64,000 nt of DNA from an uncultured Solirubrobacterales bacterium (GTDB lineage Bacteria; Actinomycetota; Thermoleophilia; Solirubrobacterales; Solirubrobacteraceae). Within the stretch, counting starts at the first letter, position 1. Each line of letters opens with the position of its first letter. Location of the stretch: positions 1,491,459 through 1,555,458 of the forward strand of contig OY969562.1 of NCBI GenBank assembly GCA_963701035.1. Reading direction: 5' to 3'. Below, piece by piece: positions 3,115 to 20,504 of this stretch. Both the position numbers and the translations under genes were made by a program. The notes beneath the pieces are model-generated. The model made no database searches. It had not been told where the DNA came from and worked only from the letters and a program-made list of their open reading frames with translations.

Positions 3115-3118
3115 GAAG

Positions 3119-3938: not shown

Positions 3939-3940
3939 GC

Positions 3941-3958
3941 AACATGAACTTATATGTT
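3941..3958 (+). promoter_or_regulatory. AT-rich inverted repeat between toxin and antitoxin (candidate antitoxin promoter/operator)
   Basis: AACATgaacttatATGTT; identical copy at 11960-11977. Confidence 0.4.
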
Positions 3959-3969
3959 ATGGTTCTCTG

Positions 3970-4341
3970 ATGATGGCTACGGACACCATGCTCACAGGTC
4001 AGGCATTCGACGAGTTCCTCGAGGGCCAGCTCGCCGACCCCTCGTTCAGAGCTGGATTTGAGAAGAAGCTCGCGAAGGTCAAGAGCATCGCCGAGGTGCT
4101 GCAGGTCATCGAGCTGGCTAGGGAGCGAGAGAACATTCCCAAGGCTGAGCTCGCCCGGCGCATGGAACGCAAGCCCGAGGCGATCTCACGGCTCCTGCGC
4201 GGCGAGGGCGCCAACCCGACGCTCGAGACCCTGATCGACCTGGCCGATGCGATCGGGCTCGAGCTCGACATCCGCATCAAGCGCCAGCCAGCCAAACGCA
4301 ACGGCAAATACTCCCCGCTGAAGGTTCACTCCACCGTCTGA
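3970..4341 (+). CDS. Xre/HTH_3 antitoxin (HigA-like)
   Basis: IPKAELARRMERKPEAISRLLRGEGANPTLETLIDLA HTH. Confidence 0.85.
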   Translation: MMATDTMLTGQAFDEFLEGQLADPSFRAGFEKKLAKVKSIAEVLQVIELARERENIPKAELARRMERKPEAISRLLRGEGANPTLETLIDLADAIGLELDIRIKRQPAKRNGKYSPLKVHSTV

Positions 4342-4391
4342 GCGGCCGCCAAAGCTCGTGGTCGGCCGACCCTGGTCGGAGAACGCGCCCC

Positions 4392-4420
4392 TGACGCGGG
4401 GCAGGACGCCCCGCGCCCAC
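4392..4420. repeat. Hairpin repeat B, copy 1
   Basis: TGAC-GCGGGGC-AGGAC-GCCCCGC-GCCCAC. Confidence 0.9.
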
Positions 4421-4490
4421 GACCTTGGGATACCCAACCACACGCGAGGATGCGGCCCAAGACACATCCCTAAAAAAGACACCCCATAGA

Positions 4491-5084
4491 ATCACCGGTG
4501 GCGAGAAAAACGTTTCTGAAGGCTTCACGGACTCGATCGGCGGCGGCTACGAGAACAAGGCCTCAAAGCTGCAGAGCTCGGTCAGCGGTGGGGCGCACAA
4601 CGTCGCATCGAACAACTCGGCCTCGGTCAGCGGCGGCCTCGAAAACGAAGCCGCCGGTTTTGAATCCTCCGTCAGTGGCGGCTCCAAGAACAAGGCCACG
4701 GGCGCACAGTCCTCGGTCGGTGGGGGTACCGGCAACGAAGCTATCGAACAGCTCTCGTCGATCGTCGGTGGGCTCTTCGACAAAACCGAAGGTGCGTTCT
4801 CCGCGGTCCTCGGCGGCGACGGGGACATCGCCAAAGGCGAAACGGCGGTGCTCGTCGGCGGCTTCGAAAACCGAGCGCCGACTCGGTATGGCGCGGTCGT
4901 GGGTGGCGATTCGAACAAGGCCGGCGGTGAATACAGCTCCGTATTCGGGGGTCTCAGTAATGAAGCCATCGGCGAGTTCTCCTGGGTGGGTGGAGGAGAG
5001 GCCAACAAAGCCAAAGGCAACAGCTCCTCGATCCTCGGCCTAAACACCAAGGAAGCAAGCGGCGGAGGCGAAGTTTTGTACTAG
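4491..5084 (+). pseudogene. Cassette S1: start-less 3' part of a Gly-rich beta-roll repeat surface protein
   Basis: About 12 repeats of 15 aa (SSVSGGxxNxAxxxx); no signal peptide or RBS. Confidence 0.75.
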
Positions 5085-5085
5085 G

Positions 5086-5280
5086 GGGTGGCGGGCTGGG
5101 TGGCTGTTAGCTACCCGGCCCGGTTAGGGATGAGCTAGGAACAGTCGGCGCCGCTTTACTCGAGCTACGCAACTCGGCTGGGTGGTTACCGGAGCGTTCT
5201 TGCTTGCCAGCCCGTGCGTGGTTGAATTGGGTTGTTGTTATTCCGCGTAAACGCTGCGGGCGCTGTTGGTGGTCCCTGGA
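5086..5280. repeat. Composite repeat A, copy 2 (with 5' GTGG hairpin)
   Basis: GTGG-CGGGCTGGGTGGCT-GTT-AGCTACCCGGCCCG hairpin followed by the A core. Confidence 0.9.
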
Positions 5281-5454
5281 CGGGTCGATTCGTCGGGGTT
5301 AGGGCAGACCTGCGAAAACTTGTGGCTCGGTTGCAGGGGTTTTTGCAGCGAGGAGGGCTCGATCTCGTCTGCCGTCCCAGAGCGTGAGTAGCTTGCTCGG
5401 CATGAGATTGACTTGTATTGATGAGCCCCACCCACCCCAGAGCCCCACCCGCCC

Positions 5455-6114
5455 GTGAGCCCGAGCCATGGCGCACCCTTCCGGGGATTCCACGACGACG
5501 AGGAATCCCCCTTCTTCTGCGCGGCCGGACGCACCCCGGAGCAGACCTGGGACATCAGTGTCAACCGGTTTGCGGACATCCTCGAAACGCTCGAGGCCCT
5601 CGCGGCCACCGGGCCGATCGAGATGTCCCCCGGGCTGCTCTGTTCCTGGCACCGCGAGATCTTCGGTGAGCTGTTCCCCGAGAACGCGGGACGGCTGCGC
5701 GGCTTCCGAGACGGTCAAGCCCAACACGTCTACTTCGGCGTGCACAACCGCGGCTACCGCGGAACGACGCCGCGCGAACTTCGCCGGCGGCTGGAGAAGA
5801 TCTGCACCGAGTTCAACACCACCGCCGCCGAGATCCGCGCATCCGAGGCCCCCGAGCGCTACGACGCCGTTTACGCCGCGACGCGGCTGTACGCGAAGGT
5901 CCTGCGCGCCCATCCCTTCGTCGACGGCAATCTCAGAGGCACGACCGTGGCGCTGAACGCCGGCCTGGTCACGCTCGGGCTCGACATAGTCGCCTTCAAG
6001 GACCTCGGCCAGCACGACGAGCTGCTCGGCATCGCGTTCGTCGGCCGCAACGACCCCTACAGCCCGCTCGCCGAACACATCACCGAGCTCTTGGCCGACA
6101 CCCAATCCGCTTGA
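5455..6114 (+). CDS. Fic/Doc family protein
   Basis: HPFVDGNLRG Fic-like motif; WHREIFG...AGRLR. Confidence 0.85.
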   Translation: MSPSHGAPFRGFHDDEESPFFCAAGRTPEQTWDISVNRFADILETLEALAATGPIEMSPGLLCSWHREIFGELFPENAGRLRGFRDGQAQHVYFGVHNRGYRGTTPRELRRRLEKICTEFNTTAAEIRASEAPERYDAVYAATRLYAKVLRAHPFVDGNLRGTTVALNAGLVTLGLDIVAFKDLGQHDELLGIAFVGRNDPYSPLAEHITELLADTQSA

Positions 6115-6135
6115 CCAACGTCCTATCCTTGAACC

Positions 6136-6369
6136 ATGGCCAAAAACACCAACAACGGCGCTCTGAACAACAACGGCGCTCCCAAACGCGTCCACGCCGT
6201 GATCGACGGCAAGCGCGTCCCACTCGACCGCACAGCAGCCCTCTACATCGCCCAACAGACACATCTGCTCGCCCTAGGCGATCCCAAACGGGCGGCAGAG
6301 ATGGTGGCCGAAGCCGAGCGCGCCGGGAACAACGGCACCAACGCCAGCAGCGCCGGCACCGTCGCCTGA
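6136..6369 (+). CDS. Small hypothetical protein, possible Fic partner
   Basis: ATG-started 77-aa ORF 21 nt after the Fic stop, ending just before repeat B2. Confidence 0.5.
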   Translation: MAKNTNNGALNNNGAPKRVHAVIDGKRVPLDRTAALYIAQQTHLLALGDPKRAAEMVAEAERAGNNGTNASSAGTVA

Positions 6370-6390
6370 CCCAGTCAGCACCCCACCCTC

Positions 6391-6419
6391 TGACGCGGGG
6401 CAGGACGCCCCGCGCCCAC
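6391..6419. repeat. Hairpin repeat B, copy 2
   Basis: Identical 29-mer to B1. Confidence 0.9.
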
Positions 6420-6491
6420 CAGCCTTTGGGGTTCGTGGTGAGCTGCGTGGATGCGACCCAAACACGTCCATACAAAAAAACACCACATATA

Positions 6492-7085
6492 ATCACCGGT
6501 GGTGAGAAAAACCTTACCGAAGGTGTCACGGACTCGATCAGCGGCGGCTACGAGAACAAGGCCTCCAAGCTGCAGAGCTCGGTCAGCGGTGGGGCGCACA
6601 ACGTCGCATCGAACAACTCGGCCTCGGTCAGCGGGGGCCTCGAAAACGAAGCCGCGGGGTATGAATCCTCCATCAGTGGGGGCTCCAAGAACAAGGCCAC
6701 GGGCGCACAGTCCTCGGTCGGTGGGGGTACCGGCAACGAAGCTATCGAACAGCTCTCGTCGATCGTCGGTGGGCTCTTCGACAAGACCGAAGGCGCGTTC
6801 TCCGCGGTCCTCGGCGGCGACGGCGACATCGCCAAAGGCGAAACGACGGCGATCGTCGGCGGCTTCGAAAACCGAGCGCCGACTCGGTATGGCGCGGTCG
6901 TTGGTGGCGATTCAAACAAGGCCGGCGGTGAATACAGCTCCGTATTCGGGGGTCTCAGCAACGAAGCCATCGGCGAGTTCTCCTGGGTGGGTGGAGGAGA
7001 GGCCAACAAAGCCAAAGGCAACAGCTCCTCGATCCTCGGCCTAAACACCAAGGAAGCAAGCGGCGGAGGCGAAGTTTTGTACTAG
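6492..7085 (+). pseudogene. Cassette S2 (near-identical to S1)
   Basis: Same length as S1 with a few substitutions (e.g. AAGFE/AAGYE, ETAVLV/ETTAIV). Confidence 0.75.
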
Positions 7086-7086
7086 G

Positions 7087-7167
7087 GGGTGGCGGGCTGG
7101 GTGGCTGTTAGCTACCCGGCCCGGCTAGGGACGAGCTGGGAACAGTCGGCGCCTCTTTACTCAAGCT
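7087..7167. repeat. Composite repeat A, copy 3, left part (split by IS110; resumes 8524-8630)
   Basis: ...TACTCAAGCT|IS|ACGCAACTCGG... reconstructs the intact A core. Confidence 0.9.
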
Positions 7168-7182
7168 GTGTAGTTTTGGGTG

Positions 7183-7432
7183 TGCCTGTCGGGCTCGATG
7201 AGTGTGGTGGGCTCCGGTGTCTTCGTAGCGAGCCCGTAGGGCGAGCGGAGAAGACGCCGGGTGGTGGCGTCCGACGCCCCCGCGAGGGTGCTGGCGGCGG
7301 CGGGATGACTCGTACTCCAGCTGGCCCGTACTGGTGCCTTTGCGTAGATCCGTCTCCCGCCGCCACCGCACCGGATGCCGCCGTGACTTCATAGAAGCCT
7401 GACCTAGCTCGACACAGCTCTGTCCGACGGCC
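7183..7432 (+). ncRNA. Predicted IS110 bridge RNA, copy 1
   Basis: Stem-enclosed loops carry target guides (TACTCCAGCT 7313-22; TTGCGTAG 7340-47) and donor guides (ATAGAAGC 7391-98; ACACAG 7412-17); RNA ends approximate. Confidence 0.75.
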
Positions 7433-7467
7433 TCCACATCACCAACCAGACGATGAGGAGAGACACG

Positions 7468-8478
7468 ATGATCGCAGTTGGAGTGGACACCCACAAGCAC
7501 GAGCACCTCGCCAGAGCGCTCGACCATCTCGGACAGCTGCTGGGCGGGGTGACCGTCGACGCGAGCCTCGCCGGCTACACCCAGTTGATGCAGTGGCTCA
7601 GAACGCTCGAGGGAAATGTTGTGGTCGGGATCGAGGGCGCCGGCAGCTACGGCGCCGGCCTCTGCGAGTACCTCCTCGCCGAAGGAATTACTGTCGTGGA
7701 GGTCGAGCGTCCCCGCCGCCAGGACCGCCGACGAGGAAAGTCCGATGAGATCGACGCGCTCCTGGCCGCGAAGAAGGTTCTCGCCAACGACGGGCTCTCC
7801 ACGCCCCGCGTCGGTGGCACACGCCAAGCCCTGGCGGCGTTGCTGATCGCGCAGCGCACCTGCAAGGGCGAGCGCACAAGGCTGCTCAACCAGATCCAAG
7901 CGATGAACACCACCGCACCCCTCGCGCTGCGCGAGCGAATCGGCGAGGGCAACGGCCGCAACCTCGCCGATCGGCTGGTGAAGATGCGTACTCGCAGCGA
8001 CCGGCCCGCGAGCGAGCAGCTGATTTTCACCGTCATGCGTGACCTCGCTCGACGAGCGCAAGAGCTCGCCGCTCAAGCCAGTGCCTACGAGCACGAGCTC
8101 ACCGTCCTGATCAGTTCCCTCGATGCAACACTCCTGCAGGAGCAGGGCGTCGGCCCGATCTCCGCAGCCAAGCTCTTGGTCTGCGACCCCAAACGGCTGA
8201 AGAGCGAGGCGGCGTTCGCGCGCTGCAACGGCACCGCTCCCAAGCCCGCCAGCTCCGGGCAAACAATCCGCTACCGACTCTCCCGCGGCGGTGACCGACA
8301 AGCCAACAACGCACTCCACACAATCGCCCTGCACCGCGCCCGCCGCGACACCGAAACCCGCGCCTACCTCGACCGCCGCATCAGCGAGGGAAAGACCAAA
8401 CGCGAGGCCATGCGCGCCCTCAAGCGACACCTCTCCCGCCACCTCTACAAACAACTCATCACGATCCCGCTGACCTAA
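7468..8478 (+). CDS. IS110 family recombinase/transposase
   Basis: GVDTHK, GIEGAGSYG, KSDEIDA (DEDD RuvC-like); PASSG..RLSRGGDRQAN (C-terminal transposase domain); AGGAG RBS. Confidence 0.95.
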   Translation: MIAVGVDTHKHEHLARALDHLGQLLGGVTVDASLAGYTQLMQWLRTLEGNVVVGIEGAGSYGAGLCEYLLAEGITVVEVERPRRQDRRRGKSDEIDALLAAKKVLANDGLSTPRVGGTRQALAALLIAQRTCKGERTRLLNQIQAMNTTAPLALRERIGEGNGRNLADRLVKMRTRSDRPASEQLIFTVMRDLARRAQELAAQASAYEHELTVLISSLDATLLQEQGVGPISAAKLLVCDPKRLKSEAAFARCNGTAPKPASSGQTIRYRLSRGGDRQANNALHTIALHRARRDTETRAYLDRRISEGKTKREAMRALKRHLSRHLYKQLITIPLT

Positions 8479-8887
8479 CAAAAAGATCCCCTTAAAGATC
8501 CCCTTGACACAATAGAAGCGTCTACGCAACTCGGCTGGGTGGTTACCGGAGCGTGCTTGCTTGCCAGCCGTTGCGTGCCTGAATTTGGTTGTTGTTATTC
8601 CGCGTAAACGTTTTGACCGCTGTTGGCGCATGATGCGCTCAGGGCTTGCTGGCAAGTAGCGCCTCGACGGAACACTGGCTATCGAGCCAAGTCTCTGCGT
8701 CGGGGTCGATCCATCCAGTAGCGATCGTGTGATCAAGTGCGTCCGGGCGCAGGTGGGCAGATAGCAAGTACCCGACAGCGGTCCCCACCAGTCCGCGGTC
8801 GATCCCGGGTACCTGTGGCACTGCGCAGGGCTCCTTGGTACTGCCGCCGCGCAGCTCGCGGCCGGGGCTGACGGTAGGCTCGATGGT

Positions 8888-10057
8888 GTGGAGGACAAAC
8901 CCAGCGCGAACCTACCCGAGAGGGGAGATGCCGGCTTGCCGGATGCGAGCTATGCCGAGGTGCTCGCGGACATAAAGACGCGGGTTGATGCGGCTCGTGT
9001 GCGGGCGTTGCGCGCGGCTAACGCGGAGTTGATGGGGGTCTACTGGCACATCGGACGGCACATCGCCGAGCAGGAGGATGCCGCGCCGGTCAAACGTGGC
9101 CGTAGCGCTCCGAAGATCATCGCGCGTCTCTCTGCGGACCTCCGCGCCGCGTACCCGGACACCACGGGATTCTCGCCGCGAAACCTCCGCTACATGCGGG
9201 ACCTGTCCCGCGCGTGGACTGAGGAGGAAATGTTGCAACACGGTGTTGCAACATTTCCCTGGGGCCACATCGTTGCTCTGCTGGGCATCCGTGACCCCGG
9301 GATCCGAGCCTGGTACGCCGAGCGCGCCGGCGAATGGACGCGGCCCGTGCTTCAGCACCATATCGCCAACGACCTGCATCTCTCCCAGGGCGCGGCGCCC
9401 AGCAACTTCGAGCGCGCTCTGCCCCCCGGTGACGCCGAAGCCGCGCAGGCACTGACCCGCGATCCGTTGATCGTGGACTTCATCCGGGGCACACCGGGAC
9501 GCGAGCGCGATCTCGAGCTCGCCCTGCTCGCCGACATCGAGCGCTTCATGACCGCACTCGGCAAGGGCTTCTCCTTCTACGGGCGCCAGCTCCCACTCAC
9601 GGTCGGCGACCGCGACTTCGCCACCGACCTGGTCTTCTACCACCACCCCCAGCGTCGGTTCGTGGTGATCGAGCTGAAGATCGGCGAGTTCGACCCCGAG
9701 CACGCCGGCAAGCTCAACTTCTACGTCAATGCCGTCGACGAGCAACTCGCCGCCCCCGAGGACACGCCCACCATCGGGATCCTCCTCTGCGCCACTCGCG
9801 ATGAGGCAGTCACGGAGATGACCCTCCGCGGCATCTCGAGCCCAATCGCCGTTGCACGATGGAAGACAGGCTCGGAGATGACCATCACAGAAGAGCCCAC
9901 CGTCTCACCAGGAATGCAAGCCGAGCTGGCAGAGATGCGCGACGTAGAGGTCGAGCTGACCGCCTTCGCCACCCGTCAGCTGGCCGCGATCGAAGAGACC
10001 ACACCCGACCCCGGCCAAGACATCACCGGCGATCCCGCGGACCCGTCTGGCGCATAG
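8888..10057 (+). CDS. YhcG/DUF1016 family PD-(D/E)XK nuclease, full length
   Basis: N-terminal YWHIG..GFSPRNLRYMR..PWGH; C-terminal DLVFYH..FVVIELKIGEF..GKLNFY..IGILLC. Confidence 0.9.
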   Translation: MEDKPSANLPERGDAGLPDASYAEVLADIKTRVDAARVRALRAANAELMGVYWHIGRHIAEQEDAAPVKRGRSAPKIIARLSADLRAAYPDTTGFSPRNLRYMRDLSRAWTEEEMLQHGVATFPWGHIVALLGIRDPGIRAWYAERAGEWTRPVLQHHIANDLHLSQGAAPSNFERALPPGDAEAAQALTRDPLIVDFIRGTPGRERDLELALLADIERFMTALGKGFSFYGRQLPLTVGDRDFATDLVFYHHPQRRFVVIELKIGEFDPEHAGKLNFYVNAVDEQLAAPEDTPTIGILLCATRDEAVTEMTLRGISSPIAVARWKTGSEMTITEEPTVSPGMQAELAEMRDVEVELTAFATRQLAAIEETTPDPGQDITGDPADPSGA

Positions 10058-10267
10058 CCCGTCCTCGACCGCTCGCACTGACGCTGCGGAAGTCTGAACT
10101 GGGCTACGACGTCGAGAAATCGTTGAACCGTGTTCGAAGCTGCGTGTGCACATAGATCTCGGCGACGCTCGATCGGACACCTTTCAAGTCATCGTCGAAC
10201 GTTTGGGGCGACGGCCTGAGTACAGGTAGGGTCGGGTGAGTCGAAGTCGGGTATCAGCTGTTCGCTT

Positions 10268-10296
10268 TGACGCGGGGCAGGACGCCCCGCGCCCAC
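10268..10296. repeat. Hairpin repeat B, copy 3
   Basis: Identical 29-mer. Confidence 0.9.
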
Positions 10297-10367
10297 CAGC
10301 CTTGGGGGTCCCAGCGAGCTGCGAGGATGCGACCCAAACACATCCATACAAAAAAACACCCCATAGA

Positions 10368-10922
10368 ATCACCGGTGGCGAGAAAAACCTCGCCGAAGGC
10401 GTCACCGACTCGATCGGCGGCGGCTACGAGAACAAGGACTCCAAGCTCCAGAGCTCGGTCAGCGGTGGGGCGCACAACATCGCCTCGAACAACTCGGCCT
10501 CGGTCAGCGGCGGTCTCGAAAACGAAGCTTCAGGGTTTGAATCCTCGGTGAGTGGCGGCAATAAAGGCGAAGCGACTGGGACGTGGGACTCGATCAGCGG
10601 CGGCTTTGAAAACAAAGCCAGCGGGACCGAAGCGGCCAGCGTCAGCGGCGGCCTGCAGAACACCGCCGGCGGCAGCTTTCAGAGCTGGGTCGGTGGGGGC
10701 TACAGAAACGACGCTACGGGCATACAGTCCTCGGTGAGTGGTGGTGACAAAAATGCCGCGAGCAGCCAGTACTCCTCGGTCAGCGGCGGCTCTGAAAACA
10801 GAGCCGAAGGCGAAAGCTCTTCGGTCAGCGGCGGCAAAGAAAACAAGGCCGCGAAGAACTTCTCCGCGATCCTCGGGGGGAAACTCAAGGAAACCACGAC
10901 TGAATTCGAAGCCCTGCTCTAG
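10368..10922 (+). pseudogene. Cassette S3 (5' repeats like S1, different 3' repeats and terminus)
   Basis: ITGGEKN..first 4 repeats shared with S1, then diverges to SAILGGKLKETTTEFEALL. Confidence 0.75.
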
Positions 10923-10944
10923 CCGGTAGTCCACTGAAGCGTCG

Positions 10945-11290
10945 GACGCGGGGCATGGATGCTCCGCGCCCCGTGCTCGCTTAGAGATGAGCTGCGCAAC
11001 TGAGCTGGGTGGTTACCCTCGCGTGCTTGCTTGGGAACGAGCTACGCAACTCGGCTGGGTGATTATTGGCGCGGGGTTGCTTGGGACGAGCTGAGAACAA
11101 TCGGCGTCGCTGAAGGACGAGTTGTGCGACGAGGGCTGGTGGTGAGTTGCCCGGGTTTGGAAAATCCAGCTACGCAACTGGGCTGGGTGGTGATTGGCGC
11201 GTTGTTGCTTGCCGGCGTTTTCGTGGTTTGATTCGCGGTTGTTAATCCGCGTAAACAGTTTGGGCGCTGTTGTGGGTCCCTGGTCCTCTT
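10945..11290. repeat. Composite repeat A, copy 4, with internal tandem sub-repeats and a B-like hairpin (10945-10971)
   Basis: Three GCTxCGCAACTxxGCTGGGTG units (~10990, ~11041, ~11168), then TTAATCCGCGTAAAC..GGTCCCTG. Confidence 0.8.
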
Positions 11291-11450
11291 GGGCCTGGGC
11301 GTTGGTGGCGAGATCGGGGGTTCTGTCGAGGCGGGCGGTGAGCGTTTTCGCGCCAGGTTTTGCCTTGCATGGCCCGGAACGACGGGGGTTTAGGGGGTGG
11401 GCGGCATCCCGATCGCGGTTCCCGTCGTAGGTGCGGCGTAGCTTTGTGGG

Positions 11451-11957
11451 ATGGCTCCTTCTAAGAGGGACAAGCGGCGTGCCAAAGCGCGCGGCACCGA
11501 CGGCGCGGGCGTCTCGCCGACCACCGTGAGATGGTCGCTCGCTTTCTACAGGACCGACAAGGGCCTGGCGCCTGCCCGCAGCTTTCTGCTCGATTGCCCG
11601 CAACCGGTGCGGGAGATGCTCCTGGCGATCGTGGTCGCGGTACGCGACGCGCCTCCACCGAGTTTCCCGCCGAGCAGGATGTGGCATGTCATGCACGGTG
11701 AGATGAAGGGGTTCTACGAGGCACGCGACGAGCACGATGGTCAGCTGTATCGCGTGTTCTGTGTGCTCGACAGCCAAGCACCGGAGCACGGACTGGACGC
11801 CAAAGCCCTCACGCTGATCTGCGGCGGGGTCAAGCCGGTCCGCAAGCCGATGGACAAGAGCGTGTACAACAAAGCGCTGACCTACCGTCAGGACTATCTG
11901 GCGACACGGCGGATCGTGCTGGGAATGGGCGTTCCGAGAGACCAGCGAAAGTCTTGA
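11451..11957 (+). CDS. Type II toxin (Gp49/HigB-like), copy 2
   Basis: Near-identical to 3432-3938. Confidence 0.7.
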   Translation: MAPSKRDKRRAKARGTDGAGVSPTTVRWSLAFYRTDKGLAPARSFLLDCPQPVREMLLAIVVAVRDAPPPSFPPSRMWHVMHGEMKGFYEARDEHDGQLYRVFCVLDSQAPEHGLDAKALTLICGGVKPVRKPMDKSVYNKALTYRQDYLATRRIVLGMGVPRDQRKS

Positions 11958-11988
11958 GCAACATGAACTTATATGTTATGGTTCTCGG

Positions 11989-12360
11989 ATGATGGCTACC
12001 GACACCACGCTCACAGGTCAGGCATTCGACGAGTTCCTCGAGGGCCAGCTCGCCGACCCCTCGTTCAGAGCTGGATTTGAGAAGAAGCTCGCGAAGGTCA
12101 AGAGCATCGCCGAGGTGCTGCAGGTCATCGAGCTGGCTAGGGAGCGAGAGAACATTCCCAAGGCTGAGCTCGCCCGGCGCATGGAACGCAAGCCCGAGGC
12201 GATCTCACGGCTCCTGCGCGGCGAGGGCGCCAACCCGACGCTCGAGACCCTGATCGACCTGGCCGATGCGATCGGGCTCGAGCTCGACATCCGCATCCGC
12301 CGCCAGCCGGCCAAACGCAACGGCAAGTACTCGCCGCTGAAGGTTCACTCCACCGTCTGA
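11989..12360 (+). CDS. Xre-HTH antitoxin, copy 2
   Basis: Near-identical to 3970-4341. Confidence 0.85.
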   Translation: MMATDTTLTGQAFDEFLEGQLADPSFRAGFEKKLAKVKSIAEVLQVIELARERENIPKAELARRMERKPEAISRLLRGEGANPTLETLIDLADAIGLELDIRIRRQPAKRNGKYSPLKVHSTV

Positions 12361-12411
12361 GCGGCCGCCAAAGTTCGTGGTCGGCCGACCCTGGTCGGAG
12401 AACACACCCAT

Positions 12412-12440
12412 TGACGCGGGGCAGGACGCCCCGCGCCCAC
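12412..12440. repeat. Hairpin repeat B, copy 4
   Basis: Identical 29-mer. Confidence 0.9.
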
Positions 12441-12510
12441 GACCTTGGGATACCCAACCACACGCGAGGATGCGGCCCAAGACACATCCCTAAAAAAGAC
12501 ACCCCATAGA

Positions 12511-12580
12511 ATCACCGGTGGCGAGAAAAACGTTGCCGAAGGTGTCACCGGCTCGATCAGTGGCGGTTTTGAAAACAAAG
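12511..12580 (+). pseudogene. Cassette S4, truncated after ~23 codons
   Basis: ITGGEKNVAEGVTGSISGGFENK runs directly into the repeat A hairpin. Confidence 0.7.
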
Positions 12581-12631
12581 GTGGGCCGGGCTGGGTGGCT
12601 GTTAGCTACCCGGCCCGGTTAGGGACGAGCT
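12581..12631. repeat. Composite repeat A, copy 5, left part (split by IS110; resumes 13976-14235 with tandem duplication)
   Basis: ...AGGGACGAGCT|IS|AGGAACAGTCGG... Confidence 0.9.
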
Positions 12632-12646
12632 GTGTAGTTTTGGGTG

Positions 12647-12896
12647 TGCCTGCCGGGCTCGGTGAGTGTGGTGGGTGCCGGTGTCTTCGTAGCGAGCCCG
12701 TAGGGCGAGCGGAGAAGACGCCGGGTGGTGGCGTCCGCCGCCCCCGCGAGGGTGCCGGTGGCGACGGGATGACCCGGGGACGAGTCGGCCCGAGTTGGTG
12801 CCTTTGCGTAGACCTGTCTCCCGCCGCCACCGCACCGGATGCCGCCGTGACTTCATAGAAGCCTGACTTTGCTTGACACAGCTCTGTCCGACGGCC
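12647..12896 (+). ncRNA. Predicted IS110 bridge RNA, copy 2
   Basis: Target guides GGGACGAG 12777-84 and TTGCGTAG 12804-11; donor guides ATAGAAGC 12855-62 and ACACAG 12876-81; ends approximate. Confidence 0.75.
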
Positions 12897-12928
12897 TCCA
12901 CATCACCAACCAGACGATGAGGAGACAA

Positions 12929-13942
12929 ATGATGATCGCAGTTGGAGTGGACACCCACAAGCACGAGCACCTCGCCAGAGCCCTCGACCACCTCGGACAG
13001 GCCCTGGGGGGTCTGACTATCAACGCGAGCCTGGCCGGCTACATGAAGCTCACCCAATGGCTCAGAACGCTCGAGGGAGAAGTTGTCGTTGGGATCGAGG
13101 GCGCCGGCAGCTACGGCGCCGGACTTTGCGAGTTTCTCCTCGCCGAGGGGATCACCGTGGTGGAGGTCGAGCGTCCCCGCCGCCAGGACCGCCGAAGGGG
13201 GAAGTCCGACGAGATCGACGCGTTGATGGCCGCGAAGAAGGTGCTCGCCGACGACGGGCTCTCCACACCCCGAGCCGGCGGCACACGCCAAGCACTCGCA
13301 GCCTTGCTGATCGCGCAGCGCACCTGCAAGGGCGAGCGCACACGGCTCCTCAACCAGATCCAAGCACTGAACACCACCGCACCCCTCGCGCTGCGCGAAA
13401 GGGTCGGCGAGGGCAACGGCCGCGACCTCGCCCAACGACTCATCAAGATGCGCACCCGCAACGACCGGCCCGCAAGCGAGCACCTGATCTTCACCGTTAT
13501 GCGTGACCTCTCCCGCCGAGCGCAAGAGCTCGCCGCCCAAGCCAGGACCTACGAGCACGAGCTCACCATCCTGATCAGCTCCCTGGACCCCACACTCCTG
13601 CAGGAAGACGGAGTCGGCCCGATCTCCGCAGCCAAGCTCCTGGTCTGTGACCCCAAACGCCTCAAGAGCGAGGCAGCGTTCGCGCGCTGCAACGGAACCG
13701 CCCCCAAGCCCGCCAGCAGCGGACAAACAATCCGCTACCGCCTCTCCCGCGGCGGCGACCGCCAAGCCAACAACGCGATCCACACCATCGCCCTGCACCG
13801 AGCCCGCCGCGACACCCAAACCCGCGCCTACCTCGACCGACGCACCAGCGAAGGAAAGACCAAACGCGAGGCCATGCGCGCACTCAAGCGACACCTCTCC
13901 CGCCACCTCTACAAACAACTCATCAACATCCCCCTCACCTGA
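12929..13942 (+). CDS. IS110 family recombinase/transposase, copy 2
   Basis: Same motifs as copy 1 with scattered substitutions. Confidence 0.95.
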   Translation: MMIAVGVDTHKHEHLARALDHLGQALGGLTINASLAGYMKLTQWLRTLEGEVVVGIEGAGSYGAGLCEFLLAEGITVVEVERPRRQDRRRGKSDEIDALMAAKKVLADDGLSTPRAGGTRQALAALLIAQRTCKGERTRLLNQIQALNTTAPLALRERVGEGNGRDLAQRLIKMRTRNDRPASEHLIFTVMRDLSRRAQELAAQARTYEHELTILISSLDPTLLQEDGVGPISAAKLLVCDPKRLKSEAAFARCNGTAPKPASSGQTIRYRLSRGGDRQANNAIHTIALHRARRDTQTRAYLDRRTSEGKTKREAMRALKRHLSRHLYKQLINIPLT

Positions 13943-14418
13943 AAAAAAGATGCCCTTGACACAATAGAAGCGTCTAGGAACAGTCGGCGCCGCTTTACTC
14001 GAGCTACGCAACTCGGCTGGGTGGTTACCGGAGCGTGCTTGCTTGGGGATGAGCTAAGACAACCAGCCACTCTTTACTCAAGCTACGCAACTCGGCTGGG
14101 TGGTTACCGGAGCGTGCTTGCTTGCCAGCCGTTGCGTGCCTGAATTTGGTTGTTGTTATTCCGCGTAAACGTTTTGACCGCTGTTGCCGGTCCCTGATGC
14201 GTTTTGATCGCTGCCGGTGGTCCCTGATGGACCAGCGCGCCGGCGCGGCGCGCACGTGATCGATCGCCTCCAACCCACAGCTCGAGGATCGCGCGGCGAT
14301 CGAGGTCTTCCTCGAGGGTTCGTTTGATCAGGTCAGACGCGCTGACGCCGGCGGGTCCGGCGGGCCGCTCCCCTTGCCCACCCCTGATGGCCGGATCCCG
14401 TCCGGAGCCAATGCGAAC

Positions 14419-15255
14419 ATGTGTTCGATGACTGGTCCTCCACCCATACGCCGCAGCGACGCGCTGCCGGCCGACTACCCGCAGTTCCTGGCCGAGATCA
14501 AGGCCCGGATCGCGGGCGCGCGCACCCGTGCAGTACTCGCGGTCAACAGCGAGCTGATCCGGCTCTACTGGGAGATCGGGCACGAGATCCTCGAGCGCGA
14601 GCAGCGCGAGGGATGGGGCGCCAAGGTCATCAACCGCCTAGCGGAGGATCTCCGGCGCGAGTTCCCCGACATGACGGGGCTCTCGCTGCGGAACCTTCGC
14701 TACATGCGAGCGTTTGCCCGAGCGTGGCCCGCCGAGAGCCCGTCCTCAATTGTGCAACAGCCTGTTGCACAATTGCCCTGGGGGCACAACGTCACGCTGC
14801 TCGACAAGCTCGACGACTCCGCAGGACGGCTTTGGTACGCCGGTCAAGCCGTCGAGAACGGGTGGTCTCGCAACGTCCTGCAGGCCCAGATCGCGAGCGA
14901 TCTCCGTGGTCGCCAGGGCAGCGCGCTAACAAGCTTCGACCACGCGCTGCCGGAGCCGGACTCGGAGCTCGTTCGCGACGCGATCAAGGACCCCTACAAC
15001 TTCGAGTTCCTCGGCCTGGCTGGGCGGGCGAAGGAGCGCGACCTCGAGCGGGCCCTGCTTCGAGGCATCGACAGCCCGGTGGCGATTGCGCGCTACACCA
15101 CGAGCGAGGTCACGCTGACGCAGACACCACCGCCGGAGATGCAGCCCGCGCTCCCGGACCTTCCCGCGCTGGCAAGCGAGCTATCCGACATCGTCGAGGC
15201 AGCCAACGCTGCGCACGACGATGGGGCGACGGAGGACGAGACGGGAAACAGTTAG
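14419..15255 (+). CDS. YhcG/DUF1016 protein lacking the nuclease core
   Basis: Intact N-terminal domain; DLERALL is joined directly to RGIDSP. Confidence 0.75.
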   Translation: MCSMTGPPPIRRSDALPADYPQFLAEIKARIAGARTRAVLAVNSELIRLYWEIGHEILEREQREGWGAKVINRLAEDLRREFPDMTGLSLRNLRYMRAFARAWPAESPSSIVQQPVAQLPWGHNVTLLDKLDDSAGRLWYAGQAVENGWSRNVLQAQIASDLRGRQGSALTSFDHALPEPDSELVRDAIKDPYNFEFLGLAGRAKERDLERALLRGIDSPVAIARYTTSEVTLTQTPPPEMQPALPDLPALASELSDIVEAANAAHDDGATEDETGNS

Positions 15256-15268
15256 CACCCCCACCCCC

Positions 15269-15290
15269 TGACGCGGGGCAGGGACGCGCC
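15269..15290. repeat. Hairpin repeat B, partial copy 5
   Basis: TGACGCGGGGCAGG preceded by the AGCACCCCCACCCC leader seen at other B copies. Confidence 0.7.
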
Positions 15291-15342
15291 CTGGTGGTAA
15301 GACAGCGCGCCATTCGAAACGCTCGCGTCTCGTCCGTTGCGA

Positions 15343-16758
15343 TCATGTCGGTGTCTTGGAGCGGGACGCCTCTTCTGTCCGCGAAAGCAAGCGCACGCCA
15401 AGGTCGCCATGTTTCTGGCGTGGAGGGGGTGTGTGGGGTTGGAGTGTGATGCGTCCGCCGCGTGCGGGTACGATGAATACGTTGCGGTGCGCGACTCGCT
15501 CTGCTCGCTGGTGGGAGGGTTCGAGGCGGGCGTGGCGCAGGATTGTCCTGAGCACGATTCGGGCCTCGGAGAGGGAGAACGCGGCGCCGATGCATCGTCT
15601 GGGTCCGCCGCCGAAGGGGATCCAGGTGTAGGTGCCGGCGCGCGTGTCAAGGAAGCGCTCGGGGCGGAAGGCGAGCGGGTCTGGGTAGAGCTCGGGACGG
15701 CGGTGCACGAGCGTTATGTAGGGGACGACCATCGTGCCGCTCGGGATCGTCAGCCCGGGTAGCTCGAACTGCTCGGTGGCGAGTCGTGCGGTGAGCGGGA
15801 AAGCTGGGCGCAATCGCATCGCCTCCTTGATGACCGCGTCGAGGTACTCATCGTCTCCGTCGAGCGCGGCGGCTTGCAGGCGTGTGAGCGCGTCGGGGTA
15901 GCGGCTGACGCGCTCGAATATCCACGTCAGGGTCGAAGCGGTCGTGTCGTGGCCACCGAGCAGCAGGGTGCGCATCGCGTCGCAGATCTCCTCGTCGCTC
16001 ATCAGGCGGTCTTGGCTGTCGGGTGTGCGCAGGAACATTCCGAGCACGTCCTGGCCGTCGAGTTGACCGCTGCTGCGGCGGTGGGCGACCTCTTCCAGCA
16101 CGATCGCGTCGACCGCGTCGATCGCGCGGCGGACTCGTGGGAACGGTCTGTCCCACCCGTTCTGGCGGCTGGTCGCGATTATCGTCTGCAGGAAGAACCG
16201 CCGTGAGTGGCCCTCGGCAAGCAGCGCGAGCGTCGCTGAGCGCAACCGGTTGACGCGCGCGGGGTCGGTGACCCCGAACACGGTGGCCATGATCACCTCG
16301 AGGCTGATCGCTTCCATGTGCGGCTGGGAGGGAGTGGGGTGCCCGTAGGGCCAGCGTGCGAGAACCTCTTCGGTCTTGCGCTGCATCGTCTCGTGGTAGC
16401 CGGCAAGCGCGTCGCCGTGGAACGGGGGCAGCTGCGTGCGCCGCCTGCGCATGTGCTCGGCGCCGTCGATGTTCGTGAGTCCCGTCGGGCCGAGGAAGAG
16501 ATGGTGCGCGGACGCCTTCGCCAGCGCCGCTCCAAGTGCAAGCACGCCGGTGTCGGCTGTGAAGATGCGCTTGATGTCCTCGGGATCGGTCAGGCACAGC
16601 CACGGCCCCGTCGCCGGCATCGGCACGAGGAAACGGTCGCCGAGGCGCTGGCAGTGGCGCGCGAACTGCTCCGGGGCCAGCCAGTACTGGGCGGCATTGA
16701 CAACCGCGGGGCGTCGCAGTCGAGGCAAGTCGGTAAGTGTCTGGTCCATGAGCCACAT
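15343..16758 (-). CDS. Cytochrome P450
   Basis: GGHDTT (I helix), EAMR (ExxR), FGGGPRRCIG heme-thiolate motif. Confidence 0.95.
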   Translation of the reverse strand: MWLMDQTLTDLPRLRRPAVVNAAQYWLAPEQFARHCQRLGDRFLVPMPATGPWLCLTDPEDIKRIFTADTGVLALGAALAKASAHHLFLGPTGLTNIDGAEHMRRRRTQLPPFHGDALAGYHETMQRKTEEVLARWPYGHPTPSQPHMEAISLEVIMATVFGVTDPARVNRLRSATLALLAEGHSRRFFLQTIIATSRQNGWDRPFPRVRRAIDAVDAIVLEEVAHRRSSGQLDGQDVLGMFLRTPDSQDRLMSDEEICDAMRTLLLGGHDTTASTLTWIFERVSRYPDALTRLQAAALDGDDEYLDAVIKEAMRLRPAFPLTARLATEQFELPGLTIPSGTMVVPYITLVHRRPELYPDPLAFRPERFLDTRAGTYTWIPFGGGPRRCIGAAFSLSEARIVLRTILRHARLEPSHQRAERVAHRNVFIVPARGGRITLQPHTPPPRQKHGDLGVRLLSRTEEASRSKTPT

Positions 16759-16766
16759 CCTCTCTA

Positions 16767-16791
16767 GTTACTCTGTACGAAATACAGTAAC
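16767..16791. promoter_or_regulatory. Imperfect palindrome between divergent P450 and TetR (candidate TetR operator)
   Basis: GTTACtcTGTA-cgaaa-TACAGTAAC. Confidence 0.5.
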
Positions 16792-16800
16792 ATAGTACCC

Positions 16801-17424
16801 ATGGTGCCGATAGCCGAACTCCTTGACGTGACTCCTGTCGTGGGCGAGGACGTGCTGTTTGACCGGGTTGCCGCGGCGGCGCTCGAAGAGTTCGCCGAGC
16901 ACGGCATCCGTCGCACCTCGATGGAAGACGTCGCGCGTCGCGCCGGTGTCTCACGAATGACCGTTTTCCGCCGGTTCGCGAGCAAGCAACGCCTCGTCGA
17001 GATCGTCATCGCACGCGAGGTCAATCGCGGAATGCAAGAGCTCGACCTCCTCTGGGAAGGCGCGGAAACACTCGAGGACCGACTCGTCGCAGGGTTCGAG
17101 TTCGCCGGGCGCTACGTCCGCGGGCACCCACTATTCGACCGGCTCCTGCGCAGTGAACCCGAGGTCCTGCTACCGCCGCTCACGCTCGACGGCGGACCCG
17201 TGCTCGAGCTCTACCGATCACTCATCGCACATCGACTCCAGGCCGAAGTCAACGCCGGACGCGCCACGACATCAGACATCGACGGTGTCGCTGAGGTGAT
17301 CGCACGCCTCGCGATCTCACTACTACTCACCCGCGACGGGACCATCACACTCGAGGACCCAAACTCCGTCCGGCGCCTAGTCAACCTCACAGTACTCCCC
17401 ATGCTCCAACCACAACAGGACTAG
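16801..17424 (+). CDS. TetR/AcrR family regulator
   Basis: TSMEDVARRAGVSRMTVFRRFASK HTH. Confidence 0.92.
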   Translation: MVPIAELLDVTPVVGEDVLFDRVAAAALEEFAEHGIRRTSMEDVARRAGVSRMTVFRRFASKQRLVEIVIAREVNRGMQELDLLWEGAETLEDRLVAGFEFAGRYVRGHPLFDRLLRSEPEVLLPPLTLDGGPVLELYRSLIAHRLQAEVNAGRATTSDIDGVAEVIARLAISLLLTRDGTITLEDPNSVRRLVNLTVLPMLQPQQD

Positions 17425-17654
17425 CCGCCGATCCGCCTAACCCACGGCGCGATGCCACTCAGACGAAGCGCACCCTCTCGCTTTGTGTGTGATCCGCGCG
17501 TCTCAAGGGGCACCCAGCTCACTCCTGCTCCGGACGACAAACAAGCGTCTTGGCCACCCGCATGAGCACTGGTCGCAGTGCTGTCCGTGTGAGGGCAGCA
17601 CGCGGCTTGGCGTCACTCTGATATCAGGCCCTTCCCGGTACGCACACCACCCTT

Positions 17655-17684
17655 TGACGCGGGGCATGGAGGCCCCGCGCCCAC
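17655..17684. repeat. Hairpin repeat B, copy 6 (loop variant)
   Basis: TGAC-GCGGGGC-ATGGAG-GCCCCGC-GCCCAC. Confidence 0.85.
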
Positions 17685-17746
17685 TCCCATCGGAAACGCC
17701 AACACCACGCGTGGATGCGCCCCAAAAAGACACCCAATTTCATTCA

Positions 17747-18307
17747 AGCAGCGGCGGCGTTTTGAACATTGCGAGCGCTCACGGAAGCTCGATCGCCGGT
17801 GGCTTCAGGAACACCGCGAGCGCCAACGAGTCCGCGATCGCCGGTGGCTGCTCGAACGTCGCGGGCGCCACCGCCCCCACGATCAGCGAATGCACCGAAA
17901 ACGAAGGTTACTTCCCATCGATCCTCGGCGGCGTCGGCAACCAGGCCAGCGGGACGAACGCCACCGTCAGCGGCGGCACCGGCCACACGGCGAGCACAGT
18001 CGACGGCGTCGCCGGCGCGTTGAGCAGCCTCTCGATCGTTCGCACCGAAAAGGAAGTCGGGGCAGGCAACAGCGCCCAAACGTATGCCAACTGCCCGACC
18101 GGCGAGATCGCAACCGGTGGTGGAGTCGGCGCGGCACAGGGCGGCAACAGCGCCGACAACCTGTGGCAGACCGGTCCCGTGAACGCGGCGAACGGCCTCT
18201 TCTCCAACACCACGATGGGGACGCTTCCGGTGAGCTGGTACGGAAGCTACCTCAACAACAGCGGCAAATCGGAGACCGCCTACACCTGGGCCCTCTGCAG
18301 CCCCTGA
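17747..18307 (+). pseudogene. Cassette S6: Gly repeats plus Cys-bounded C-terminal domain
   Basis: SxGGxxN repeats, then ANCPTGEIATGGG...WALCSP; no start or signal peptide. Confidence 0.65.
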
Positions 18308-18399
18308 TCGATCCGCAGCACCTGACGCGCAATCGCTGAGGCGCAGCACCTGATGCTCGGCACCCCCCGGGGCCTGAAGGCCCCGGGGTGCAGTCAGCG

Positions 18400-18545
18400 C
18401 CTTTTACTTCAGCTACGCAACTCGGCTGGGTGGTTACCGGAGCGTGCTTGCTTGCCGGCCCGCGCGTGCCTGAATTTGGTTGTTGTTATTCCGCGTAAAC
18501 GTTTTTGCCGCTGTTGGCGGTCCCTGGTGGACCAGCGCGCCGGCA
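18400..18545. repeat. Composite repeat A, copy 6
   Basis: CTTTTACTTCAGCTACGCAACTCGG...TTATTCCGCGTAAACG...GGTCCCTG. Confidence 0.9.
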
Positions 18546-18719
18546 CGGTGCGGACGTGGTTGATCGGCTCCAACCCGCTGCTCGAGGGATCGCGCGGCGA
18601 TCAAGGTCTTCCTCGAGGGTTCGTTTGATCAGGTCAGACGCGCTGACGCCGGCGGGTCCGGCGGGCCGCTCCCCTTGCCCACCCCTGATGGCCGGATCCC
18701 GTCCGGAGCCAATGCGAAC

Positions 18720-19559
18720 ATGTGTTCGATGCCTGGTCTTTCCCCCATACGCCGCAGCTACGCGCTGCCGGCGGACTACCCGCAGTTCCTGGCCGAGATC
18801 AAGGCCCGGATCGGGGCTGCCCGGACGCGTGCCATGCTCGCGGTCAACGGCGAGCTGATCAGGCTCTACTGGGAGATCGGGCATGAGATCCTCGAGCGCG
18901 AGCAGCGCGAGGGGTGGGGTGCCAGGGTCATCAATCGCTTGGCGGCAGACCTTCGGCGGGAGTTTCCGGGCATCACAGGCTTCTCGCGGTCGAATCTCAA
19001 GTACATGCGCGCGTTTGCTGAGGCTTGGCCGGCAGAGGAGGGCGATGACTCAATTGGCCAACAGCCTGTTGGCCAATTGCCCTGGGGGCAGAACATTGCG
19101 CTGCTGACGAAGCTCAAAGACCGCGAAGCCCGCCTCTGGTACGCCGCCAAGGCTGTCGAGTACGGCTGGTCCCGCAATGTTCTGCAGGCTCAGATCGCGA
19201 CCGATCTCCGGGGGCGTCAGGGGGGCGCGCTGACGAGCTTCGACCATGCGCTGCCGGAGTCGGACTCCGAGCTGGTTCGCGACGCGATCAAGGACCCGTA
19301 CAACTTCGAGTTCCTCGGCCTGGCTGGGCGGGCGAAGGAGCGTGAGCTCGAGCAGGCGCTGCTTCGAGGCATCGACAGCCCGGTGGCGATTGCGCGCTAC
19401 ACGACAGGCGAGGTCACGCTGACGCAGACACCACCGCCGGAGATGCAGCCGGCGCTCCCGGACCTTCCCGCGCTGGCAAGCGAGCTATCCGACATCGTCG
19501 AGACAGCCCACACTGCGTACGACGACAAGGCAACGGAGGACGAGCCGGGAATCAGTTAG
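18720..19559 (+). CDS. YhcG/DUF1016 protein lacking the nuclease core, copy 2
   Basis: Same ALL|RGIDSP junction; diverged middle region. Confidence 0.75.
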   Translation: MCSMPGLSPIRRSYALPADYPQFLAEIKARIGAARTRAMLAVNGELIRLYWEIGHEILEREQREGWGARVINRLAADLRREFPGITGFSRSNLKYMRAFAEAWPAEEGDDSIGQQPVGQLPWGQNIALLTKLKDREARLWYAAKAVEYGWSRNVLQAQIATDLRGRQGGALTSFDHALPESDSELVRDAIKDPYNFEFLGLAGRAKERELEQALLRGIDSPVAIARYTTGEVTLTQTPPPEMQPALPDLPALASELSDIVETAHTAYDDKATEDEPGIS

Positions 19560-19571
19560 CACCCCACCCTT

Positions 19572-19600
19572 TGACGCGGGGCAGGACGCCCCGCGCCCAC
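19572..19600. repeat. Hairpin repeat B, copy 7
   Basis: Identical 29-mer, 12 nt after the DUF1016 stop. Confidence 0.9.
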
Positions 19601-19656
19601 CAGCCTTAGGGGTTTCAGTGAGCTGCGTGGATGCGACCCCAGACATACCCCTATTT

Positions 19657-20013
19657 ATCTCCGGTGGCTATTACAACGTCACGGGTGCAGAGAATGTCCG
19701 ATTGACCGACTATGAACACGCACATGATGAAGAAAAACCAGAACTGACCAGTGAACTGACCGGCCTGTACAGTTCTATAACCGGAGGCGCTTTTGATTTC
19801 GCTCTTGGGACGGCGTCTTCCGTCAGTGGCGGGGAGAGCTCGGCCAGTCAGGGGGTCGTTTCCTCGGTCACCGGAGGCTTTGAAAACAGCACAGACTCCG
19901 AAGGCTCCTCGATCGACGGTGGCTCCAACAACCGAACGCAGACGAGGAGCTTTGGAGCTGTCGGCGGCGGCCACGGCTTGGTCGAGGAAGTTGAAAATGG
20001 GTTCGGGAGCTAG
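19657..20013 (+). pseudogene. Cassette S7 (short, divergent Gly repeats)
   Basis: ISGGYYN..SSITGG..SSVSGG..SSVTGGFEN..GAVGGG. Confidence 0.65.
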
Positions 20014-20200
20014 GTGGCGGGGCGGGGTACGACCGGAGTTGCTTAGGGATGAGCTGGGAACAGCCGGCTCCGCTTTACTCAAGCTACGCAACTCGGCTGG
20101 GTGGTTACCGCAGCGTGCTTGCTTGCCGGCCGTTGCGTGCCGTCAACCCGCAGTTGTTATTCCGCGTAAACGTTTTGGGCGTTGTTGGTGGTCCCTGGGG
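20012..20200. repeat. Composite repeat A, copy 7
   Basis: GGGATGAGCTGGGAACAG..CTTTACTCAAGCTACGCAAC..TTATTCCGCGTAAACG. Confidence 0.9.
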
Positions 20201-20251
20201 CGGGCAGGCTCGGGGGCTGGTGGCGTCCTGGTTCGGAGAACGCGCCCATCA

Positions 20252-20483: not shown

Positions 20484-20504
20484 GACTCCAAGAGCATTCT
20501 TGCC

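Follow-up and report, generated by a model that had tools for sequence, protein, structure and literature searches.

The window analysed here, 64,000 nucleotides (nt) from an uncultured Solirubrobacterales bacterium (positions 1,491,459-1,555,458 of one 3.0-Mb contig with 68% GC; the genome is labelled G000 in comparisons), carries an array of six start-less gene pieces, the cassettes S1, S2, S3, S4, S6 and S7. Our results support the view that these units are 5'-truncated, ATG-less and signal-less copies of a family of beta-roll surface-fibre genes, and they show that the cassettes exchange sequence with one another. The original prediction had read them as a reservoir for variation of an expressed adhesin. 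The exchange among cassettes bears this out in part, whereas donation to expressed genes in G000 was not shown. With a confidence that stays slightly short of an even chance, we regard the array as a recombining silent pool, in which start-less orphan 3' modules persist and diversify by ectopic recombination within a modular island.

Repeat finding, the listing of open reading frames (ORFs) and the alignment of upstream regions agreed on the six proposed units, of which S4 is truncated, at the positions given in Table 1. All six open at the same point of a 15-residue repeat register; the coding part begins at ATCACCGGTGG in S1-S4, at AGCAGCGGCGG in S6 and at ATCTCCGGTGG in S7. Each unit is preceded by a conserved motif, which belongs to a hairpin repeat here called element B, and by a linker of 21-36 nt rich in A and C. 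All six lack both an ATG and a signal peptide, and in all units but S4 the frame is open to a stop typical of the family. Even with GTG and TTG allowed besides ATG, no in-frame start codon occurs over the first 134 codons of S1 and the first 75 of S3, counted from the GCGNGGATGCG motif. Each unit retains the repeat body, the C-terminus, the stop codon and the terminator hairpin, and its 5' end is replaced at a repeat boundary by B and the linker. In S4, everything between the first repeat and the terminator hairpin is gone, and the identical deletion is found in c1467, a copy outside the window. As the original prediction had stated, S1 is nearly the same as S2, S3 is like S1 only at its 5' end (about 90% over the first 240 nt counted from the GCGNGGATGCG motif), and S6 terminates in a distinct Cys-bounded domain. 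The Gly-rich frame is the coding one, as indicated by its higher GC content at third codon positions (GC3), the distribution of S1-S2 differences over the codon positions (12/7/21) and the homology to signal-peptide-bearing proteins. An alternative-frame ORF of 181 amino acids, starting from a GTG after a TATAAT/TAGAAT-like box in the linker, was rejected; its second codon position takes most of the substitutions, and over S3 the ORF list has no alternative-frame entry of 80 amino acids or longer.

The variability claimed for the cassettes was examined in an alignment of S1, S2, S3, S4 and a further unit, c1476, which proved to be mosaics exchanging segments. In B and the linker, S1 matches S4, c1476 matches S3 and S2, and S1 and S2 are only 72-73% identical. 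In alignment columns 181-240, S1 equals S2 and is near S3, and c1476 is unrelated. In the 3' part, S1, S2 and c1476 are 95-100% identical, and it is S3 that is unrelated. An independent assembly, L092 (ENA ERZ25039493 contig_46925), contains the same kinds of module in a different order, and its S2 module is 98% identical to that of G000. The differences between the two are 7/660 nt in the Fic gene, 0/234 in the gene for a 77-amino-acid protein, 0/122 in B and the linker, and 22/594 in S2 (7/3/12 over the codon positions); the upstream flank of S2, formed by the 77-amino-acid gene, B and the linker, differs at 0/356 nt. The S2 differences are clustered, and 15 of the 22 L092 alleles are those of another G000 cassette. 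This is the pattern that segmental conversion between paralogues would produce.

A search for full-length paralogues with a signal peptide found two elsewhere in the genome, FL1 and FL2, which lie upstream of cassette runs and in the same orientation. Both have a GGAGG-type Shine-Dalgarno (SD) sequence, and each is followed, again in the same orientation, by a second repeat (element A), cargo, B and a cassette. In the sister species G083 (contig C195), two full-length genes alternate with three cassettes, and each full-length gene has B approximately 110 nt ahead of its ATG. In two of the three cassettes, B and a portion of this leader are retained and joined to internal positions of the gene at differing junctions. 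The comparison of these junctions shows that cassettes arise as internal deletions removing the SD, the ATG, the signal peptide and the N-domain. At the 3' end, full-length genes and cassettes of G083 share 90-94% identity, which is sufficient for homologous exchange; the two full-length genes share 83%. A single-protein scan for related loci returned one distant Solirubrobacterales metagenome-assembled genome (MAG), whose full-length gene is ordinary and which lacks cassettes.

Structure prediction, which the original prediction had proposed as a check, yielded a beta-roll like the UspA1 head. The AlphaFold2 model of S1 (59 homologues) has a pLDDT of 97.3, and Foldseek superposes it on the UspA1 head 3pr7_A with a TM-score of 0.86 and a root-mean-square deviation of 2.3 Å; the heads of other trimeric autotransporters come next in the list of structural matches. 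S3 matches the Pfam family UspA1_rep with 38.9 bits and UspA1 3pr7 by phmmer with an E value of 3.5e-17, and relatives match the beta-roll family LbR_Ice_bind. On these grounds, the fibre shaft is predicted to be a UspA1-head-like left-handed beta-roll. Pfam finds no C-terminal YadA-anchor beta-barrel in FL1, FL2 or the cassettes, the ends of which are short C-terminal motifs or a Cys-bounded globular domain. The C-terminal domain of S6 also caps collagen-like fibre proteins of relatives. Since full-length members in the genus begin with an N-terminal signal peptide or membrane anchor, often followed by a collagen-like or KEG-repeat stalk, and then have a conserved neck (...KPTIQFSG...) and the beta-roll, the C-terminus is probably the distal end of the fibre. 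In some relatives, the loss of a stop codon turns a downstream fibre unit into part of a longer protein; in L089 (G070:C9, 4915-5838, minus strand) and in protein P0293, two fibre units are fused in frame, and ...GVSAG runs into the next LTEAEQSKLF neck.

Element B is an 83-nt hairpin repeat. It contains the invariant stretch TGACGCGGGGCA(T)GGA(C/G)GCCCCGCGCCCAC, with the hairpin block GCGGGGC-loop-GCCCCGC followed by GCCCAC, and after about 24 variable bases comes GCG(A/T)GGATGCG, the region of the GCGNGGATGCG motif. A search of the 3.0-Mb genome with the hairpin pattern gave 22 matches, and its reversed form, used as a control, gave 0; a covariance model recovered 24 copies, all within 1.349-1.511 Mb. 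In a survey of the genus with the covariance model, 50 of 101 genomes had a match, and the copies ranged from 0 to at least 45 per genome and were scattered. Given this uneven copy number and scatter, B is a dispersed repeat. The 8-bp stem shows covariation, with five changes from GC to AU, two to GU (tolerated on the gene strand only) and, at the closing pair, six from CG to GC. Since different copies are read in three different frames, B is non-coding. A second helix, sought by eye, received no support from RNAalifold, and Rfam holds no family for A or B, either at the gathering threshold or at E values up to 1. A lone hairpin of the B type, GCGGGGC-ATGGAT-GCTCCGC with one G.U pair, lies directly after the S3 stop (10945-10973), and the second half of B is absent there.

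B is also found outside the fibre family. In G000 it precedes genes for BY-kinases (tyrosine kinases of capsule or exopolysaccharide synthesis that act as chain-length regulators); three complete kinase-domain genes have B about 70 nt upstream of the start, and B is fused to two 3' fragments of such genes at 1448492-1448900 and 1459342-1459767 of the genome. A similar fragment follows B in a second species, G070 (L101, G070:C5, B copy on the minus strand at about 9862), and B joins the kinase sequence at almost the same codon in the two species, immediately ahead of the VVDTPP/VIDTPP motif. The architecture of B plus a 3' fragment is thus shared by beta-roll fibre genes in G000, G083 and G070 and by BY-kinase genes in G000 and G070. 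It is rather improbable that B is the cis-acting handle of a genus-wide system that keeps and swaps alternative 3' ends of cell-surface genes, in which it would serve to mark or stimulate recombination, or to restart translation on a captured 3' module, while the toxin-antitoxin (TA) cargo would stabilise the store. The hairpin loop of B contains GGA, a second box reads GGAUG, and CsrA is encoded in the genome (1269373-1269528, L057), so that B may be considered as a CsrA-bound leader, a candidate idea only. The genome encodes no flagellin and no FliW, although it encodes CsrA. Since CsrA was present in all 24 genomes of the genus tested, with or without B, its co-occurrence with B is uninformative. 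As for the linker, in S1-S4 (4470-4495, 6470-6495 and 10347-10372) it contains a run of 6-7 A and, 5 nt ahead of an out-of-frame GTG, a TAGAAT/TATAAT box, features unusual in DNA of 68% GC. A role of this poly-A tract as a frameshift or phase-variation switch, read from the ATG in GGATGCG, was considered and rejected; in S1 and S4 a TAA closes this frame ahead of the tract, and no SD lies at a usable distance from the ATG. No sigma-70-type promoters were found in window positions 3000-21000.

Several observations weigh against a pool that serves expressed genes. In G000, the two full-length genes share at most 74% DNA identity with any cassette, the sole exception being a 64-nt tract at 89% (S6 and FL1 are 66-68% identical). 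This is far below the approximately 90% identity of the Borrelia vls cassettes to vlsE (PMC11499132), a level that is reached in G083. Among 1.84 billion representative proteins, S1-S4 had no full-length relative above 49% amino acid identity; the close kin of S1 are only other cassette-like metagenome fragments (P0003, P0070 and contig L092). Of 254 FL2 homologues found, ten picked for highest identity or partial coverage were inspected, and 0 of the 10 had a cassette-type 3' end or was a chimera of full-length gene and cassette, many being 5'-truncated or tandem-fused forms. Approximately 6 of 14 G000 units are broken or internally deleted, and several L092 units are frameshifted, for which assembly error is possible. 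The ratio of nonsynonymous to synonymous substitution (dN/dS) among S1, S2, c1476 and S3, another check proposed earlier, was 0.31-0.50 and not 1, but such a ratio could be a legacy of functional ancestors or have been brought in by conversion. Translation in place also has to be considered: an in-frame TTG or GTG lies inside B in every intact unit, and the GTG variant of GCGNGGATGCG is found in 7 of 13 S-linked B copies and 0 of 9 others. The missing ribosome-binding site reported in the original prediction was indeed not seen, but this is weak evidence because 6 of 8 ordinary island genes checked likewise lack an SD, and SD-less starts appear common in the island. With the G083 comparison in its favor and the low identity of FL1 and FL2 weakening it, donation of cassettes to expressed genes is plausible.

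The cassettes could instead be non-adaptive relics, by-products of partial duplication and deletion in a recombination-prone family within a plastic island, which recombine only through their similarity, decay slowly and never serve expressed genes. We consider this possible but on the doubtful side. The many units that are broken, internally deleted or disrupted by insertion sequences (IS) are in line with it, as are a GC3 of 0.73 in S1-S3 and 0.61 in S7 under the 0.79-0.88 of neighbouring genes, the lack of a close full-length partner for S1-S4, the widespread 5'-truncated variants with many breakpoints in metagenomes and G083, and the recurrence of the B-plus-3'-fragment pattern for BY-kinase genes. 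Slow decay is harder to reconcile with the low dN/dS and the codon-position bias of the substitutions, with frames that remain open to family-typical C-termini in cassettes just 32-35% identical to each other, and with the contrast between unchanged B and linker and changed S2 in the L092 comparison. It also fits poorly with the reading phase relative to B, which is constant in 9 of 10 units examined, over five junction types and despite differing linker lengths, and which suggests translation from B's start site, at least ancestrally. The units could also be independently expressed small genes with B as 5' leader and a start at the TTG/GTG in B or at B's own start site, giving a signal-less beta-roll product of about 200 amino acids; we judge this unlikely. 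In relatives, B often directly abuts the ATG of unrelated genes (CCCAA-ATG) or tiny upstream ORFs (uORFs), and one G083 cassette ORF begins at B's ATG as a uORF fusion. The TTG/GTG codons in B, the enrichment of GTG in S-linked copies, the SD-less neighbours and a dN/dS below 1 without a similar full-length partner also speak for expression. However, all cassette-linked B copies in G000 carry ACA, GAC, AAA, AAC or ATA where other B copies have ATG, and the TTG/GTG positions differ between cassette types (S1 and S3 have GAG where S2 has GTG). The candidate starts lie in or just after a GC-rich structured repeat, and the product would have no signal peptide in a family otherwise secreted. A collection of 5.8 billion proteins contains the G000 FL2 protein and no S1-frame product, which fits S1 not having been called as a gene.

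Finally, A or B might be the sites of a dedicated recombinase in a site-specific cassette system (integron-, shufflon- or vsa-like), which we regard as very improbable. The regular array with its integron-like cargo, the covarying hairpin of B, which would also form in single-stranded DNA, the permuted module order between strains and the targeting of A and the neighbouring repeat D14 by IS110 would suit such a system. Against it, no tyrosine recombinase is encoded between 1.03 and 1.71 Mb, and none within about 200 kb of the island at 1.41-1.51 Mb (the nearest Phage_integrase matches are at 1.026 and 1.714 Mb), and the whole genome contains no serine recombinase and no match to PF01797, the HUH (Y1) transposase. 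B is absent inside FL1 and FL2 and within 400 nt upstream of them, it is dispersed genome-wide beside unrelated genes in relatives, and A occurs in several accessory regions without B or S. By eye, A and B have no R''/L''-L'/R' layout of the attC type; no attC model was run. Because no fitting recombinase or transposase was found, a mechanism of the integron, shufflon or REP/RAYT type is unlikely, and we take general homologous recombination as the default; integron, shufflon and HUH mechanisms were set aside on this absence.

For the recombining silent pool, we propose the following mechanism. The units are orphan 3' modules of a gene family whose fibre proteins are secreted and anchored at the N-terminus. 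The G000 cassettes probably have no translation of their own and probably persist, much as pilS and vls do, as a store from which the family can exchange 3' sequence. A move into an expressed full-length gene would alter the distal end of the fibre. Since no dedicated recombinase is involved, general (RecA-type) recombination would be the driver, and the interleaved TA-like cargo may guard the direct repeats against deletion. If cassettes do feed expressed fibre genes, this would be, to our knowledge, the first silent-cassette surface variation in a free-living soil actinobacterium (Solirubrobacteraceae). Archives of the pilS/vls kind would then not be confined to antibody-evading pathogens, phage or predator pressure could also yield them, and the array would offer a defined locus for testing. 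If the units are relics only, they are a clear example of repeat-rich adhesin genes and selfish cargo building a modular island, and the interest is modest. Element B is a previously undescribed repeat, dispersed and structured, that borders surface-structure genes and gene fragments on their 5' side.

Like Neisseria pilE/pilS and Borrelia vlsE/vls, the array consists of 5'-truncated, start-less copies of a surface gene, oriented as the nearby complete gene, with open frames retained and mosaic segmental exchange, and the genome has complete family genes with start and signal peptide (FL1 and FL2). It differs from pilS and vls in that donation to an expression site was not observed, the cassettes are not contiguous, each is headed by a dispersed hairpin repeat, and the host is a free-living soil actinobacterium, in which the selective agent would be phage or predators and not antibody. 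The orphan modules of CDI (cdiA-CT; contact-dependent inhibition), Rhs and MafB systems are likewise start-less displaced 3' ends downstream of a complete gene, with small accessory genes between them, and they are thought to be re-used by homologous recombination, a likeness that we draw to the present cassettes. Here, however, the 3' ends are beta-roll repeats and not toxin domains, the genes between are generic TA, Fic and DUF1016 genes and not cognate immunity genes, and the conserved 5' stretch is a non-coding repeat and not coding sequence. TA-stabilised chromosomal integrons share the long unidirectional array of short modules, the structured repeats, the TA/Fic/defence cargo and the strain-variable order, but there is no IntI-type integrase nearby, A and B do not look attC-like by eye, and every module contains the same gene fragment. 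The heads of UspA1 (Moraxella) and YadA (Yersinia), whose alleles are themselves modular mosaics, resemble the predicted fold, a left-handed parallel beta-roll with 15-residue repeats. Unlike them, the present proteins belong to the Actinomycetota, lack a C-terminal beta-barrel anchor and have an N-terminal signal peptide or membrane anchor and, in some cases, a collagen-like stalk, which gives them a reversed polarity with a probably distal C-terminus. B itself resembles mycobacterial MIRU (mycobacterial interspersed repetitive unit) and Neisseria Correia elements in being a structured repeat of about 80 nt with uneven copy number, intergenic in gene orientation and sometimes abutting starts. 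Its sequence is unrelated, it is bipartite, with a GGA box in the hairpin loop and another 5' of the start site, and, as a further difference, no mobilising enzyme was identified for it.

The anatomy of the cassette array is confirmed, and both its extent and its regularity exceed what the window alone revealed. At least 14 cassette-like units occur in the genome, all between 1.41 and 1.51 Mb, at least 8 of them upstream of the window. The window covers part of this stretch of about 100 kb, whose GC content is 60-66% against 68-70% around it and which looks like an accessory island; the annotation of its protein neighbours points to MAGs of Solirubrobacteraceae or Solirubrobacterales. Inside the window, the modules keep a strict layout, from element A through cargo and element B to a cassette, and 1-4 kb of unrelated cargo genes separate the cassettes. 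The island is shown to grow and change via segmental duplication, deletion, IS110 insertion and ectopic homologous recombination between cassettes. A terminator-like hairpin closes the module after S1, S2 and S4 (repeat family D15) and after S6.

Table 1. Positions of the cassettes, full-length genes, repeats and cargo (window positions unless marked as genome positions).
Feature	Position	Strand	Remarks
S1 cassette	4491..5084	+	197 codons of 15-residue beta-roll repeats and a stop; no ATG, no signal peptide
S2 cassette	6492..7085	+	94.9% identical to S1
S3 cassette	10368..10922	+	5' end (linker and first repeats) ~90% identical to S1; remainder distinct
S4 remnant	12511..12578	+	first repeat only, fused directly to terminator hairpin
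S6 cassette	17747..18307	+	beta-roll repeats with Cys-bounded loops, then C-terminal Cys-bounded globular domain
S7 cassette	19657..20013	+	short; GC3 0.61; C-terminus resembles that of FL2
FL1	genome 1,423,865-1,425,724	-	620 amino acids; SD, ATG, signal peptide; 66 kb upstream of window
FL2	genome 1,465,299-1,466,141	+	281 amino acids; SD, ATG, signal peptide; 25 kb upstream of window
Element B before S1	4390..4471	+	covariance model 79.6 bits; hairpin GCGGGGC-AGGAC-GCCCCGC, then GCGAGGATGCG
Element B before S2	6389..6471	+	covariance model 72.4 bits
Element B before S3	10266..10347	+	covariance model 81.2 bits
Element B before S4	12410..12491	+	covariance model 79.8 bits
Element B before S6	17653..17735	+	covariance model 78.4 bits; loop variant ATGGAG
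Element B before S7	19570..19652	+	covariance model 76.7 bits
Element A, 138-nt repeat like repetitive extragenic palindromic (REP) elements	5141..5278	+	further copies 3127-3264, 8498-8635, 10989-11233 (three partial), 13980-14196 (two), 18389-18526, 20060-20197
Terminator-like 13-bp hairpin (repeat family D15)	5093..5121	+	just past S1 stop; copies 7094-7122, 12588-12616
Module 1 cargo	3432..4341	+	gene for 168 amino acids, function unknown, and Xre-type helix-turn-helix gene (TA-like pair); 95%-identical duplicate 11451-12360
Module 2 cargo	5455..6369	+	Fic/DOC gene and its 77-amino-acid partner
DUF1016/YhcG PDDEXK cargo gene	8888..10057	+	complete copy; shortened paralogues 14374-15255, 18675-19559
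IS110-family element	7168..8519 (approximate ends)	+	inserted in element A after GAGCT; second copy ~12633-13963

Element A is not specific to the array, with 40 core copies genome-wide in several accessory regions. Both IS110 insertions lie after GAGCT, one in A and one in D14, and their targets share a GAGCT(A/G)(C/G)G(C/A)AAC core; a third full IS110 copy adjoins another A copy at 2.98 Mb. One module additionally contains P450 and TetR genes. In the two shortened DUF1016 paralogues, the N-terminal domain is kept and the YhcG nuclease domain is matched over its first ~30 positions only. The end of the array adjoins an AbiEii-type nucleotidyltransferase toxin gene and an NA37-like ORF on the opposite strand (20143-20962, minus strand), which add further content of the defence/TA type.

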